From an uncultured bacterium (GTDB taxonomy: Bacteria > Lernaellota > Lernaellaia > Lernaellales > Lernaellaceae): a DNA stretch of 19,269 nucleotides. The position numbers were made by a program, and so were the translations under genes. The stretch is taken from assembly GCA_964534375.1 (NCBI GenBank), contig CAZHPN010000123.1, positions 1 to 19,269 on the forward strand, given 5' to 3'. Positions within the stretch are counted from its first letter, which is position 1. Each line of letters opens with the position of its first letter. Positions 4,864 through 18,469 of this stretch are shown in pieces. The notes beneath the pieces were generated by a model. That model did not search any database. It was not told where the DNA came from and saw only the letters and a program-made list of their open reading frames with translations.

Positions 4864-5733
4864 ATGAAGGCGAGGGCTGTTTCACTGTGGGCGCTGGCGC
4901 TTCTTCTCGGGCTGGCCGTCGCCGTGGCGGCATCGTGCGGCACATTCGGCGGATCGAGCAGCAGCGCCGCCGCCGATGACGACGATAATGACGACGCCGC
5001 GCCGGACGACGACTCCTCGCCGAGCGACGACGACACGGCGACGGACGACGACGACGACACGTCGCCGGCGGATGACGACGACGACAACGACGACAACGAC
5101 AACGACGGCGACGACAACGATAATGACGACAATGACGATAACGACGATGACAACGACGATAACGACAATGACAACGACGATTCCTCGCCGACCGACGACG
5201 ATGACGACGACGATTCCGCCGCGGGGCTCAACTGCAACAACGACGGCAGCGTCTGCACGGATCCCAGCACGGGTTTGATCTGGCAAAACGGCGGGGGCGT
5301 CGGAGCCAATTCGTACAACTGGCTGGACGCGCAGAGTTACTGCGAGGGCCTGAGCTGGGGCGGGATGACCGGCTGGGCCTTGCCGGACATCGACGCGCTG
5401 CGCAGCCTGATCCGCGGGTGCGCCGCCACGTACACGGGCGGCACGTGCGGCGTGACCGACAGTTGCCTGAGCGATGCGAGTTGTTGGAACGACACGTGCA
5501 CGGGTTGCAGCTATCTGGGCGGTCCGGGGTCGGACGGCGCCTACTGGCCGCCGGCGATCACGGGCGACCCCTTCGATTGGTATTGGTCGTCCTCGGCCGT
5601 CGCGGACCAAAGCGGCGACGCGTGGGGCATCGGCTTCACCACCGGCTACGTCTACGGCGGCATCACGCAGGGCTCCAGCCACTACGCGCGGTGCGTGATG
5701 CAGCCGGGGCGCCGCCCGAATACGCCGGGATAA
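4864..5733 (+). CDS. Lipoprotein with Asp/Asn-rich linker and C-terminal DUF1566 (Lcl C-terminal) domain, 289 aa
   Basis: AGGGAGG RBS then ATG 4864; signal peptide MKARAVSLWALALLLGLAVAVAAS-C (Cys25); about 80-aa D-rich linker; DUF1566 motifs TDPSTGLIWQ, WLDAQSYC, GWALPDIDALRSL, WYWSSS, AWGIGFTTG, ARCV. Confidence 0.87.
   Translation: MKARAVSLWALALLLGLAVAVAASCGTFGGSSSSAAADDDDNDDAAPDDDSSPSDDDTATDDDDDTSPADDDDDNDDNDNDGDDNDNDDNDDNDDDNDDNDNDNDDSSPTDDDDDDDSAAGLNCNNDGSVCTDPSTGLIWQNGGGVGANSYNWLDAQSYCEGLSWGGMTGWALPDIDALRSLIRGCAATYTGGTCGVTDSCLSDASCWNDTCTGCSYLGGPGSDGAYWPPAITGDPFDWYWSSSAVADQSGDAWGIGFTTGYVYGGITQGSSHYARCVMQPGRRPNTPG
4975..5214 (+). repeat. Low-complexity GAC/GAT/AAC coding repeat (poly-Asp/Asn linker with DDDSSP/DDDTSP units)
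   Basis: Directly visible trinucleotide run encoding D/N tracts. Confidence 0.9.
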
Positions 5734-5756: not shown

Positions 5757-5785
5757 TCGACAATCCGTTCGACATTTGGTACAAT
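5757..5785 (+). promoter_or_regulatory. Candidate sigma70 promoter with extended -10 for the Cys-repeat genes
   Basis: TCGACA (5757-5762), 17 nt spacer, TACAAT (5780-5785) preceded by TGn. Confidence 0.55.
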
Positions 5786-5859: not shown

Positions 5860-7704
5860 ATGCGTTCCTTCAGCAAATACGTTGCGTTCCTGGCTCTATG
5901 CACAGTGCTGGTGATTTTCCCCGGCGCCGCCAAGGTCCAGGCCGCCGTTCCGGACGGCGTTGCCGTTTCCGTGATCAATACGGATGCGATGTCGGCATTT
6001 GTGGAGAATTTTCCGGGAATTGCGCGAGTGATTCGGTTCAATAAACAGGCGCTCTTCATTCTGGAAGACGGCTTGGTGTGGGAATTTACGGATGTGACGG
6101 ACGCCGGCATCGTCATTCGGCCCAACAGCCAAATCCTGGCGGTCGTGGCGGAGATGCGGCGCGGCGATTATTTGATCAGCCCGTATACGCAGTCGCGGCA
6201 GATCCGCAGCATCGAAATTTCCCCGGAAACCATCTATTTGGCCGCGCCGGTCATGGAAAAGCCGGCCGGGGCTCGCGGCGACAAGGACAAGGACCAGTTT
6301 GTCGGGAACGATTCCTGGCCTTTCGACGTGCCGATCATCAACGAGCAAAACATCACGCTGTTCGATTTGCCGATCGACGGCGTGCCCGTGACCCTCATCG
6401 CCAACAACCTGATCATCGAGTATTCGGGCAGCCTCGACCTCGGCTACAACTTCAATGTGCTGCCGCCCGACATCGATTACCTGCTCATGGAATTCGATTC
6501 GGATTTGGCGGTGACGATCGACTACACGGCGTTGGTGGGCGGAAAACTCAATTATGACTTCAATCTGATCAATATCAGCATCCCTGTTTTCTCGGTCGGT
6601 TATGCGACGGTCGACGTGACCGTGGCGCTGCCGACCACGCTGGTGACGGACGGCGCGGTGTGCCTGGGCGGCGGCGTCGCGTTCAATTACGGGTTCCAGG
6701 CGGGCGTCGAGATTCAGGAAGGGAATGTCGAGCCCATTTGGGCCTCGTCCCCCGGCAATTTCAACAACCTCGACCCGAGCTACGGCGCCGAAGCCGATGC
6801 GAATCTGAAGACGACCGTCAATATCGGCGTCTCCGCGGAAGTCGGGATCCCGGATGTGGTCACTCTGGTTTCCGCGGCCCTGACGCTGGGGCCCTATGTG
6901 GAAACGGTCGGCACGGAAACCCCGTGCAGTTGGCAGCTCAATACGGATATCAGCGCCGCCCTGGAGATCGTCGAGTTCACCGGCTTGCTTTGCCCCAAGG
7001 GCAAGTGCGACTGGACGTTGTTTGACGCCCAAGTGTATTCGAGCACGGTCGCCTGTAGCGACCTGACGGACAACTGCATTTGCGACTCCGAAGTTTGCAG
7101 CAAAGGGTGCTGCAACGGGAAAAGCTGCATGCCGGGAACGGCGGACGACGCCTGCGGCACGGCCGGCGCGGCCTGCGTGACCTGCGGGGCCATGCAGCAT
7201 TGCGAAAGCGGCAAGTGCGTCGCCGCGTGCGACGCGGGTCTCTGTCCGACCGGGTGCTGCGACGGCACGACCTGCGAACCCGGGACGTCCGCCGGACAAT
7301 GCGGCGACAAGGGCGCCACGTGCGCGCAGTGCGGCGCGAACGAGATCTGCGCCGGCCAGCAATGCACCGCGGTGTGCGACAAGACGCAGTGTCCGCTCGG
7401 TTGCTGCAATGGCACGCAGTGCGAGCCGGCGGGCGACACCAACGAAGCGTGCGGCACGGGCGGCGGCATCTGCAAGACCTGCGGCCCGGGCACGCATTGC
7501 TCGGGCGGCGACTGCGTGGCCGGCGCCGACGACGACGACAATTCGCCGGACGACGACACGTCGCCCGACGACGACACCATGGCCGACGACGACACGATGG
7601 CCGATGACGACACGGTTGACGACGACACGTCTCCCGTCGATGACGACGCCTCGCCGGCCCCTCGCCACGGCGGCACGAGTTCGAGCGGCGGCTGCGGCTG
7701 CTGA
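5860..7704 (+). CDS. Exported protein: signal peptide, uncharacterised beta-rich domain, three 10-Cys repeats, Asp-rich linker, C-terminal SSSGGCGC; 614 aa
   Basis: GGAGG RBS; SPI-like MRSFSKYVAFLALCTVLVIFPGAAKVQA; repeats at 7081-7527 (CDSEVCSKGCC..., CDAGLCPTGCC..., CDKTQCPLGCC...); tail at 7528-7704. Confidence 0.87.
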   Translation: MRSFSKYVAFLALCTVLVIFPGAAKVQAAVPDGVAVSVINTDAMSAFVENFPGIARVIRFNKQALFILEDGLVWEFTDVTDAGIVIRPNSQILAVVAEMRRGDYLISPYTQSRQIRSIEISPETIYLAAPVMEKPAGARGDKDKDQFVGNDSWPFDVPIINEQNITLFDLPIDGVPVTLIANNLIIEYSGSLDLGYNFNVLPPDIDYLLMEFDSDLAVTIDYTALVGGKLNYDFNLINISIPVFSVGYATVDVTVALPTTLVTDGAVCLGGGVAFNYGFQAGVEIQEGNVEPIWASSPGNFNNLDPSYGAEADANLKTTVNIGVSAEVGIPDVVTLVSAALTLGPYVETVGTETPCSWQLNTDISAALEIVEFTGLLCPKGKCDWTLFDAQVYSSTVACSDLTDNCICDSEVCSKGCCNGKSCMPGTADDACGTAGAACVTCGAMQHCESGKCVAACDAGLCPTGCCDGTTCEPGTSAGQCGDKGATCAQCGANEICAGQQCTAVCDKTQCPLGCCNGTQCEPAGDTNEACGTGGGICKTCGPGTHCSGGDCVAGADDDDNSPDDDTSPDDDTMADDDTMADDDTVDDDTSPVDDDASPAPRHGGTSSSGGCGC

Positions 7705-7797
7705 CGCGATAGTAATTTCGTCTTGACAGGTGGGCGCATGCCTTCCGGAAATTATCGTTGGGGAGTCGACGTAGTCCCGCCCACGAAGGAGTGGTCG

Positions 7798-9354
7798 ATG
7801 CACAACCGAGTTATTCGCACGTCCGTTCTCTTGGCGCTGGCCACGGTGCTGTTCCTGGCGCTGGCGAGCCCGCCCGCGGCGTCGGCCGCGCCGATCGATC
7901 GCCTCGCGTGGTCGACGGTGCAAGCGGGCGGCAAGAGTTGCGATTTCTTTTCCTGCCCGCTTGGCTGTTGCGACAACCAGGGCAATTGCCATACGGATGA
8001 GGACGCCCAATATTGCGGCATCGGCGGCACTTCCTGCAGCACGTGCACGCCGCCGAGCCCCAATTGCATCGAGGGATTTTGCGAGGGCTGCGGCGTGGTG
8101 GATTGCCCGACGGGCTGCTGCGACTCCAGCGGTTACTGCCACACCAACGACGACGCCCAATACTGCGGCATCGCCGGCACGTCGTGCGCCACGTGCAACC
8201 AGCCGACGCCCTATTGCGAAGCCGGCTTCTGCATCGGCTGCGACGCGGTCATCTGCCCGGTCGGCTGCTGCGACACGAACGGCGTTTGCCACACCGAGGA
8301 GTCTCCCCAGTATTGCGGGTATTATGGCGACGCCTGCTCCGCCTGCGCGCCGCCGAATCCCTATTGCTTCGACGAAGGCGTTTATTCCCAATGCACGCCC
8401 TGCAACACGCTCACGTGCCCGCTGGGGTGTTGCGGCTCCGACAGTTATTGCCACACCGACGAGGACGCCCAATATTGCGGAATTGGCGGACTCTCCTGCG
8501 ACACTTGCACGGGGACGACGCCGAATTGCCTCGCCGGCGTATGCGTGGAGTGCGACCTCGTGACGTGCCCGACCGGGTGCTGCGACACGAACGGCGTTTG
8601 CCACACCGAGAACGACGCCCAGTATTGCGGCATCGCCGCCACGTCCTGCGGCGCCTGCACCGGGGCGACCCCCAATTGCGACAATGGCTTTTGCGTCGGC
8701 TGCAGCAACCAATATCCGTGCACCAACGGCTGTTGCGACACCGATAGCAGCGTCTGTTTCCCCGGCACGAGCAACAACGAGTGCGGCGGCGTCGGCGCCG
8801 CGTGCGCGGATTGCACGGGCAACAGCGACTTCTGCCAGAACAACGCGTGCGTGAGCTGCAGCCCGCAGACCTGCGCGAGCGGCTGCTGCGACACCACCGG
8901 CGCTTGCCAGGCCGGAACGGCCGGCGACGCTTGCGGCGCCGGCGGAACGCAGTGCGCAAATTGCGCCTTGCAGGACGAAGACTGCGTCAGCCAGGTCTGC
9001 GTAACGCCCACGGACGATGACGACGACGACAACGACGACAACGACGACGACAACGCCTGCGGCGCCGATAATTGCGCGGCCGGTTGCTGTTATCACGACC
9101 AGTGCTGGCCCGGGATCGCCGACGACAACTGCGGCGTGGGCGGAATCGCCTGCGTCGATTGCACGACGAGCGGCGAGATTTGCCAAGACAATAAGTGCGT
9201 CGCCGGCGACGACGACTCTTCGCCCGACGACGACACGTCGCCCGACGACGACTCTTCGCCCGACGACGACACCTCGCCGGCGGCGGACGACGACACTTCG
9301 CCGGCTCCGATTCACCACGGGAGCAAGAGTTCGAGCGGCGGCTGCGGCTGCTGA
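7798..9354 (+). CDS. Exported protein made almost entirely of eight ~50-aa 10-Cys repeats, Asp-rich linkers and C-terminal SSSGGCGC; 518 aa
   Basis: AAGGAG at 7786-7791 then ATG 7798; SPI-like MHNRVIRTSVLLALATVLFLALASPPAASA; repeats at 7939-9207 with a D-run between units 7 and 8; tail at 9208-9354. Confidence 0.88.
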   Translation: MHNRVIRTSVLLALATVLFLALASPPAASAAPIDRLAWSTVQAGGKSCDFFSCPLGCCDNQGNCHTDEDAQYCGIGGTSCSTCTPPSPNCIEGFCEGCGVVDCPTGCCDSSGYCHTNDDAQYCGIAGTSCATCNQPTPYCEAGFCIGCDAVICPVGCCDTNGVCHTEESPQYCGYYGDACSACAPPNPYCFDEGVYSQCTPCNTLTCPLGCCGSDSYCHTDEDAQYCGIGGLSCDTCTGTTPNCLAGVCVECDLVTCPTGCCDTNGVCHTENDAQYCGIAATSCGACTGATPNCDNGFCVGCSNQYPCTNGCCDTDSSVCFPGTSNNECGGVGAACADCTGNSDFCQNNACVSCSPQTCASGCCDTTGACQAGTAGDACGAGGTQCANCALQDEDCVSQVCVTPTDDDDDDNDDNDDDNACGADNCAAGCCYHDQCWPGIADDNCGVGGIACVDCTTSGEICQDNKCVAGDDDSSPDDDTSPDDDSSPDDDTSPAADDDTSPAPIHHGSKSSSGGCGC

Positions 9355-9379: not shown

Positions 9380-9409
9380 AAGGGCGCCGGCAACGGCGCC
9401 CTTTTTCTT
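9380..9409 (+). terminator. Rho-independent terminator after the Cys-repeat genes
   Basis: AAGGGCGCCG-GCAA-CGGCGCCCTT stem with a GNRA loop, running into TTTTTCTT. Confidence 0.85.
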
Positions 9410-14307: not shown

Positions 14308-14452
14308 CGTGCGCTGGCTGATCTTCGCCACCGTTTTCCCGCCTTGACCGCCCTGCGAATTGCTGTTCAAATTCCCCCTGCGGCCAGGCGTCCGAGAAGG
14401 GTTTCTTTTCCCCGCCGCCGTCGTTCCGGGCGACCGGAAGAAAAACAGCGCA

Positions 14453-18469
<4,017 letters not shown>

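Follow-up and report, generated by a model that had tools for sequence, protein, structure and literature searches.

Two adjacent genes in the window analysed here, a 19,269-nucleotide (nt) contig (C123) from the genome of an uncultured bacterium of the class Lernaellaia (phylum Lernaellota; genome G000), encode exported Cys-rich proteins that share a short C-terminal tail, in which an acidic linker and a polar spacer lead to the residues GCGC and directly to a stop codon. With moderate confidence, we interpret this tail as a lineage-specific Cys sorting signal of the MYXO-CTERM type that is encoded without its transmembrane (TM) helix and Arg cluster, and that is in this sense "pre-cleaved". 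The features of the two genes are as follows.

5860..7704, + strand: gene 1, encoding an exported 614-residue protein (translation; orthologues P0003-P0005)
5860..5943, + strand: gene 1 signal peptide of the signal peptidase I (SPI) type, likely cleaved between VQA and A, no lipobox (hydrophobicity score)
7528..7647, + strand: gene 1 acidic linker, DDDxSP/DDDTMA, residues 557-596 (translation)
7648..7704, + strand: gene 1 tail, ASPAPRHGGTSSSGGCGC, and TGA stop (translation and DNA)
7798..9354, + strand: gene 2, encoding an exported 518-residue protein (translation; the open reading frame (ORF) spans 7723-9354)
7798..7887, + strand: gene 2 signal peptide of the SPI type, likely cleaved between ASA and A, no lipobox (hydrophobicity score)
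9208..9294, + strand: gene 2 terminal acidic linker, DDD(S/T)SP (translation)
9295..9354, + strand: gene 2 tail, TSPAPIHHGSKSSSGGCGC, and TGA stop (translation and DNA)
9382..9406, + strand: GC-rich hairpin, GGGCGCCG-GCAA-CGGCGCCC, followed by TTTTT (read by eye; the motif scan did not list it)

Both translations confirmed what the initial annotation had reported, namely that two adjacent Sec-exported proteins end in an acidic linker followed by GCGC and a stop. The gene 1 product has a Sec/SPI-like N-terminus (MRSFSKYVAFLALCTVLVIFPGAAKVQA followed by A), an uncharacterised N-terminal body of about 370 residues, three Cys-rich GCC modules with cores at residues 416, 465 and 514, the acidic linker and the GCGC tail; it contains 39 Cys and ends in VDDDASPAPRHGGTSSSGGCGC. 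Gene 2 likely starts at the ATG at 7798, which has AAGGAG just ahead of it. Its product is likewise Sec/SPI-like at the N-terminus (MHNRVIRTSVLLALATVLFLALASPPAASA followed by A), carries 82 Cys and eight Cys-rich GCC modules with eight GCC cores, one internal and one terminal acidic linker, and the GCGC tail, and ends in DDDTSPAPIHHGSKSSSGGCGC. In both proteins the DDDxSP linker is followed by a polar spacer of 18-19 residues and then by GCGC and the stop, with no hydrophobic stretch after the Cys motif in either product. The final 29 nt, stop codon included, are identical between the two genes, and the pair therefore shares a recent copy of the tail. Pfam and NCBIfam searches (NCBIfam at E ≤ 1) matched no family in either product, and an AlphaFold2 model of the gene 1 product from a 4-sequence alignment was unusable (mean predicted local distance difference test score 37; predicted template-modelling score 0.31). 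The gene 1 stop and the gene 2 start are separated by 94 nt that hold the gene 2 ribosome-binding site, and the hairpin with its T-run directly 3' of gene 2 is likely a terminator, judging by its sequence. The hairpin after gene 2, together with the ribosome-binding site and start codon after gene 1, indicates that both proteins end at the GCGC-stop as first reported.

To place the tail in its genomic context, all six frames of the whole genome (6.3 Mb, 381 contigs) were scanned, and an ORF was counted as tagged if it ended in GCG plus 0-2 residues and had an Asp-rich stretch within its last 70 residues. The GCG ending was found in 118 ORFs of at least 40 residues and the Asp-rich stretch in 57 of these, nine of which are cut by contig ends. 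The remaining 61 were nearly all short, Arg-rich, off-frame ORFs; two that lack an acidic linker, on contigs C5 and C8, resemble real proteins and have a Ser-rich tail. With 57 tagged ORFs the tail is not limited to the paralogue pair in the window, and it recurs, as initially proposed, on exported proteins with unrelated bodies. GCGC terminated 33 of the 385 Cys-ending ORFs of at least 150 residues, and the only ORF that ended in GCGC without an acidic linker was Arg-rich and off-frame. At the DNA level, the pattern GGNTGYGGNTGYTGA, which encodes GCGC-TGA, occurred 34 times in the genome versus 3 times for the reversed pattern, so that the GCGC motif is far above chance frequency genome-wide. 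A search with the tail alone (P0002 residues 484-543) of a set of 5.8 billion proteins returned nothing at E ≤ 0.01, probably owing to low complexity.

The tails varied in their last residues. Their endings were GCGC (38), GCGG (5), GCGR (3), GCGA (3) and GCGS (2), with single instances of GCGCY, GCGCG, GCGGQ, GCGGW, GCGY and GCG. The invariance of the GCG core in these 57 tails follows from its use as the selection criterion; two further acidic tails outside that criterion end in ACGA and GGCAG. A second Cys was present in 40 tails, and the pair of terminal Cys residues invoked by the initial annotation is not required, as 17 of the 57 tails carry a single Cys (GCGG, GCGA, GCGR, GCGS and others). 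What is conserved is the core G-C-G, located 1 to 3 residues before the C-terminus. The Cys was 11-24 residues distant from the last DD (15-17 in 38/57 tails), (S/T/A)P followed the acidic run in 51/57 tails, and the seven residues preceding G-C were mainly S, G, N, K and A. The H-x-G element noted at the outset proved common without being universal: a His lies 4-18 residues ahead of the Cys in 32 tails, and 25 tails have no His. The stop codons were TGA (44), TAG (8) and TAA (5). This TGA share of 77%, compared with 55% among 6002 six-frame ORFs of at least 350 residues (a baseline that includes non-genes), may reflect paralogy of the tails. Elsewhere in the genome, a product with a type IV pilin-like N-terminus (KGFTLIEIVGVLVVISILAAIAIPHY) ends in NNHHGGCGY (G000:C113:6999-7913, - strand), and its sequence suggests a tail-bearing pilin or pseudopilin-like protein.

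An N-terminal hydrophobic, signal-like stretch was found in 46 of the 49 tagged ORFs of at least 150 residues, and 42 of these 46 had no lipobox-like motif; in the other four the lipobox expression matched inside the h-region (the hydrophobic core of the signal peptide), ahead of an AxA site. The expectation of SPI signals without lipoboxes on the tagged proteins was thus upheld. The tail was not seen on proteins without a signal peptide; of the three ORFs that show no signal, two are truncated at contig ends and the start of the third is unclear. Pfam searches of the cargo covered 40 of the 49 proteins, excluding the two window proteins and seven ORFs from later contigs. Peptidases accounted for 18 of the 40 (C1, n = 10; S8, n = 5; neprosin, n = 2; C25, n = 1), and the other families were GH123, GH2, DUF2961, an FGE-sulfatase domain, BNR/PKD (n = 2), Kelch and FG-GAP; 14 had no Pfam family. 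Tagged proteins contain up to 121 Cys, and several have 39 to 121.

We next compared 17 genomes of the class with 384 outside genomes from about 270 other families. GCGC-TGA sites numbered 6-60 per genome in 17/17 class genomes and 0-9 in the 384 outside genomes (reversed-pattern control: 0-3 within the class, up to 6 outside), and tails are found by the dozen in genomes of four class families. The bare tail form is a speciality of this class. A large protein set yielded three orthologues of the gene 1 product (P0003-P0005; 60, 49 and 59% identity), all of which have an acidic linker and stop at GCGC with no helix; their linkers have diverged while the GCGC-stop is kept. These ends do not bear out a local truncation, which the initial annotation had named as a refuting outcome. 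A locus search of the genome contig set found no relatives of P0001.

Every prokaryotic C-terminal sorting signal described in the Haft preprint and by Guo, Haft and Wall (mBio 2025) is tripartite, its motif being followed by a TM helix and then by a basic cluster. G000 encodes five proteins with such a full signal (H..GCG, TM helix and GRRxKK), two in tandem on C127 and one each on C290, C3 and C57, with ends such as SPARHGGSSHQRSGCGVFAGNTDLLMFLFMTGIGLAALALGRRAEKKR. The Arg-rich C-terminal cluster was found only in these five and is absent from the bare tails. A profile built from the five signals matches the bare tails over the signature half only (model positions 1-24); across the class it gave 0-5 matches per genome, with 8/17 genomes matched at E ≤ 0.01. 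The MYXO-CTERM model TIGR03901 (20-bit cut-off), run against the six-frame genome, matched no bare-tail C-terminus. Within a bare-tailed protein it gave one match, internal and weak (12 bits), and the tripartite protein on C290 scored 20.7 bits. The tandem pair on C127 (G000:C127:6683-7698, - strand; L006 2184-3199) consists of small Cys-rich exported proteins of about 145 residues, and similar tandem pairs with tripartite tails are present at G001:C46, G003:C122 and G004:C103.

We also looked for remnants of the missing parts by appending the 150 nt downstream of each tag in three frames, for those tags that have at least 90 nt behind them. Within this range, G000 showed no TM or basic remnant, in agreement with the initial statement that the tags lack a TM helix and basic tail; ten hydrophobic windows downstream of tags were mostly the signal peptide of the next gene. 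At one locus in another genome of the class (G006:C38), the gene reads DNSGCGC-TGA-ACRRNPGLPLAVLMFAIGFAALLVARRKK-TAG, with a stop exactly after GCGC and the TM/basic remnant intact and in frame.

L015 (G006:C38:1-3049) 1511-1513, gene on the - strand: in-frame TGA within a tripartite signal (translation; single case)

This locus is either a snapshot of conversion from the tripartite to the bare form or an assembly variant. No close orthologue of the gene was found in five genomes of its family (best match 24% identity).

The lineage also encodes a homologue of the protease that acts on tripartite signals of this type. Against NF040914, the model for the myxosortase core (cut-off 100 bits), a 213-residue protein on G000:C155 scored 106.2-107.7 bits. 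This protein does not reach the MrtX, MrtC or MrtP cut-off, and its scores with MrtS (92.9 bits) and MrtJ (68.3 bits) are both under cut-off. The five tripartite-signal proteins would be its substrates, and 57 tagged ORFs stand against this one Mrt-core gene. NF040914 was above cut-off in 12/17 class genomes, 25/384 outside genomes and 0/14 control genomes. The 25 outside genomes include ones of 1.5-2.7 Mb and represent a wider spread than the Myxococcota/Bradymonadales range given in section 20 of the Haft preprint; they contain 0-5 GCGC-TGA sites, i.e. background. In the class, three genomes of 98-99% completeness lack the core above cut-off (G010 and G011 have no match at E ≤ 0.01, and G009 scores 69 bits) and have 24, 32 and 39 GCGC-TGA sites among them. 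Since tails are kept in these genomes, the bare form does not need the protease, as would be expected of a pre-cleaved substrate. The type II secretion system (T2SS) secretin GspD (TIGR02517) scored 517.8 bits in G000 and was above the 351-bit cut-off in 16/17 class genomes. Searches of G000 for sortase and exosortase/archaeosortase families found none, and rhombosortase gave nothing above cut-off, with rhomboid matches generic only.

The neighbourhood of the myxosortase homologue is partly conserved, with a convergent response-regulator/HD-GYP gene common to G005 and differing upstream genes, and accordingly no candidate partner enzyme emerged from it. Upstream in G000 lie a GT4 glycosyltransferase fused to a radical SAM/SPASM domain (L005, on G000:C155, 5222-7756, + strand) and a NodU-like carbamoyltransferase fused to radical SAM/SPASM (L005 8372-11056, + strand), whose end meets the start of the protease gene. 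This arrangement of fusion genes is not conserved in G005.

Three results tie the bare tails to a MYXO-CTERM-like system: the profile match to the tripartite proteins, the myxosortase core and the G006 locus. The closest known system is accordingly MYXO-CTERM (TIGR03901) with its CPBP/Rce1-like myxosortases MrtX/MrtC/MrtP (core NF040914) in Myxococcota and Bradymonadales. According to the Haft preprint (section 13), MYXO-CTERM signals have three parts, an invariant Cys and, in many cases, a GCGC motif. In the working model, as given in that preprint and by Guo, Haft and Wall (mBio 2025), the Cys is lipidated by an unidentified, possibly Lgt-like enzyme, and a CPBP protease, myxosortase, then cuts distal to the last Cys, with T2SS-dependent surface display; the lipid has not yet been shown even in Myxococcus, according to PMC11980579. 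The Lernaellota tails resemble this system in that a conserved Cys, commonly in GCGC, follows a disordered linker, in that each genome has dozens of Sec-exported proteins with unrelated bodies as cargo, and in that the genome encodes a myxosortase-core protease and a T2SS secretin. Moreover, the encoded end of the tail equals the predicted product of cleavage distal to the last Cys. The original remark that the proteins look "as if already processed" therefore agrees with the cut distal to the last Cys of GCGC in the published model for myxosortase. In contrast to MYXO-CTERM, 57 of about 62 Cys-tagged proteins have no TM helix or Arg cluster, the phylum is different, the linker is poly-Asp DDDxSP with a fixed spacer of 15-17 residues, and three near-complete class genomes hold tails without a detectable Mrt core.

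Under the interpretation that we favour, tagged proteins would be encoded directly as what myxosortase would leave after its cut. They would first be exported by Sec and cleaved by signal peptidase I, a step backed by their sequence features, and the conserved Cys beside the free C-terminus would then be covalently modified. This modification is inferred and would most likely be a lipid, and the tail probably serves to hold its carriers at the cell envelope. The initial annotation had suggested a distinct surface-anchoring system; five tripartite signals that align with the tails and a myxosortase-family protease in the same genome make a derivative of MYXO-CTERM/myxosortase probable instead.

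The tail was also compared with the N-terminal lipoproteins of the same organism, one of which is encoded directly upstream of the two tail-bearing genes and mirrors, at its N-terminus, their C-terminal architecture.

4864..5733, + strand: lipoprotein with an Lcl_C lectin-like head (translation; Pfam Lcl_C 58.9 bits)

The lipobox of its product ends in VAASC, and a 12-residue G/S spacer (GTFGGSSSSAAA), a poly-Asp/Asn stretch some 90 residues long and the Lcl_C domain come after it. In 163 ORFs across G000, the lipobox Cys is followed by a G/S-rich spacer and this by the type of poly-Asp linker that also precedes the tails; the spacer is 11-14 residues long in 107 of them (median 13), and its composition is close to that of the tails (163 lipoproteins/tails: G 0.17/0.20, S 0.26/0.18, A 0.16/0.14, H 0.03/0.05). 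Given this likeness and the shared linker, the tail mirrors the membrane-proximal end of the organism's own lipoproteins. The resemblance to Lgt/LspA/Lnt lipoproteins thus extends to Cys, G/S spacer and poly-Asp in mirrored order, with Gly before the Cys as at lipobox position -1. Unlike in those lipoproteins, the tail Cys is C-terminal, has no h-region and no Leu at -3, and permits no signal-peptidase II step.

Three full-length copies of the prolipoprotein-modifying enzyme Lgt (PF01790) were found in 15/17 class genomes (G014 has two and the fragmented G012 has one), and at least three copies in only 3/124 outside genomes. The copies in G000 are the following.

G000:C111:12290-13129, - strand: Lgt copy A, in an ileS-lspA-lgt cluster (TIGR00544 142.6 bits, cut-off 118.9)
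G000:C110:18642-19397, + strand: Lgt copy B (LgtB), 122.1 bits, with N- and C-terminal extensions
G000:C35:33314-34042, - strand: Lgt copy C (LgtC), 104.6 bits, under the TIGR00544 cut-off

Only copy A is located in the ileS-lspA-lgt cluster. In a tree of 18 fragments the copies formed three supported orthogroups (A 93/89, B 99/96, C 100/99), each spanning two families of the class (f1 and f3). All three copies align with E. coli Lgt (PDB 5azb) and share the alignment's invariant Arg, Tyr and Glu positions. The class-wide extra paralogues LgtB and LgtC, which stand beside the canonical ileS-lspA-lgt copy, are speculative candidates for the enzymes that would modify the tail, and at the level of sequence they offer a lead. 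A bolder version holds that the tagged proteins are "reverse lipoproteins", in which the free C-terminal G-C-G(C) of soluble periplasmic proteins would be lipidated without any membrane span by LgtB and/or LgtC. We consider this version less likely than not and hold it tentatively. If true, it would represent a new route to C-terminally lipid-anchored surface proteins and would hint at which enzyme is the lipid transferase still missing from the MYXO-CTERM pathway.

Several points weigh against a pre-cleaved MYXO-CTERM signal. All steps that would follow export are inferred, and TIGR03901 does not match the bare tails. Lipidation by Lgt, like that proposed for MYXO-CTERM, uses a Cys held at the membrane by a helix, so that a soluble C-terminus without an anchor would need a new mode of substrate presentation. 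Independence from the protease, although expected of a pre-cleaved substrate, leaves the functional link between tail and machinery unproven, and because the class genomes are related to each other, the counts among them are not independent. The extra Lgt copies might do no more than meet the demand set by a very large number of lipoproteins. Among the 123 outside genomes included in both searches, 10 of the 12 myxosortase-positive ones have one or two Lgt copies, and the extra copies of the other two (G017 and G034, three copies each) do not group with LgtB or LgtC, appearing in the tree as open forks or on long branches. A specialised Lgt subfamily common to myxosortase-positive genomes was accordingly not borne out by the tree.

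The tails were also compared with other systems for anchoring at a C-terminus. Other sorting signals with an invariant C-terminal Cys that depend on the same protease superfamily (compare the MrtS and MrtJ scores) are all tripartite with a TM segment, and their signature residues (DP, an internal Pro, GP) were not seen in the Lernaellota tails. GlyGly-CTERM with rhombosortase and PGF-CTERM with archaeosortase give lipid-linked C-termini on surface hydrolases, with T2SS export in Vibrio, according to PMC11980579. The tails resemble both as many-to-one C-terminal tags on surface hydrolases; unlike the tails, both depend on a TM helix and on a transpeptidase-like protease of their own. In eukaryotic CaaX and Rab CXC/CC prenylation, as in the tails, a Cys lies 1-3 residues from a free C-terminus and there is no membrane helix. 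CXC, as in Rab proteins, is the commonest form of the tail, and the Rce1/CPBP family of processing proteases includes the myxosortases. However, CaaX and Rab substrates are cytosolic whereas the tagged proteins are Sec-exported, the prenyltransferase family PF00432 was unmatched in G000 (the control genomes were silent too), and in 17 of the 57 tails 1-3 small or basic residues come after a lone Cys.

The same features can be explained by other means, of which a disulfide tether is a serious alternative, although we consider it rather unlikely. Here, the terminal Cys or Cys pair would stay unlipidated and be joined by an intermolecular disulfide to a partner, which could be an envelope protein, the S-layer or a second tagged protein, and the cargo would be held at the surface on its acidic stalk. 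The chemistry works without a membrane helix, the Cys lies at the extreme end of a long flexible linker, and this organism makes disulfide-rich exported proteins, with as many as 121 Cys in a tagged one. Such a tether has no identified partner protein and does not explain why the tail so closely resembles the signature half of a tripartite signal for which lipidation is assumed, nor why it mirrors the spacer of N-terminal lipoproteins. In addition, the published Lernaellota genomes come from anoxic or interface water, where surface disulfides would be labile.

The stop at G006 shows that stops can arise inside an intact signal, and many of the cargo hydrolases could work in solution. Both observations would fit a decaying relic or release variant, in which nonsense mutations after GCGC freed former surface proteins and left the motif without a function. 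We judge this improbable. The G-C-G core and the spacing of 15-17 residues are kept in 57 proteins, by the dozen per genome and in four families, and orthologues at 49-60% identity retain GCGC despite diverged linkers. Furthermore, the examined G000 tags have no TM remnant downstream, which implies old stops, and the motif has nevertheless escaped decay.

Poly-Asp is known to bind cations, and the His that lies ahead of the Cys in 32/57 tails could, with one or two Cys at the tip and the poly-Asp stalk, bind metals or minerals. We give this proposal little weight, as 25 of the 57 tails have no His and 17 have no second Cys, an MNIO-type Cys-modifying enzyme (PF05114) was not found in G000, and metal binding does not account for the relation with tripartite sorting signals. 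Even less probable is a built-in redox catalyst, in which the C-terminal CGC would act as a tethered mimic of a CXC disulfide isomerase, an idea known from the literature, and aid the folding of Cys-rich proteins. The window proteins and several other tagged ones are indeed extremely Cys-rich (39 to 121 Cys), but 12 of 48 tagged bodies have four or fewer Cys and two have none, 17 of 57 tails offer a single Cys, and median Cys content is similar in the CGC-tail class (1.7%) and the single-Cys class (2.4%). Finally, we rejected as scarcely credible that translation continues past the TGA after GCGC, by readthrough or by insertion of selenocysteine, which would accommodate the TGA excess and turn the G006 gene into an intact tripartite signal, since 13 of 57 tags use TAG or TAA, the G000 DNA downstream of tags is unconserved and often enters the signal peptide of the next gene, and the window genes are followed by a terminator-like hairpin (gene 2) or by the ribosome-binding site and start of the next gene (gene 1).

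Returning to the proposed MYXO-CTERM-type signal encoded in pre-cleaved form, it bears on how such signals work that a whole class places only the motif on its secreted proteases, glycosidases and Cys-rich stalk proteins, by the dozen. There are two options: modification and anchoring of the Cys can do without the helix, or the motif has a second function. For the MYXO-CTERM model, this touches the identity of the enzyme that modifies the Cys and its need for a membrane-held substrate. No description of a TM-less Cys tail was found in a limited search of the literature on MYXO-CTERM, Lernaellota and C-terminal Cys, which did not cover the preprint supplements, and no wording on truncated or TM-lacking signals was found in the text of the Haft preprint. 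As the tails are too short for current hidden Markov models, about 57 probable surface proteins per genome are missed in annotation.

Two further features of the window complete its description.

5757..5785, + strand: promoter-like site upstream of gene 1, TCGACA-17-TACAAT (consensus match only)
14360-18469, + strand: large hybrid sensor kinase, unrelated to the tails

The kinase combines a 7TMR-DISM extracellular domain and 7TM region with several PAS domains, HisKA/HATPase domains and two receiver stretches.

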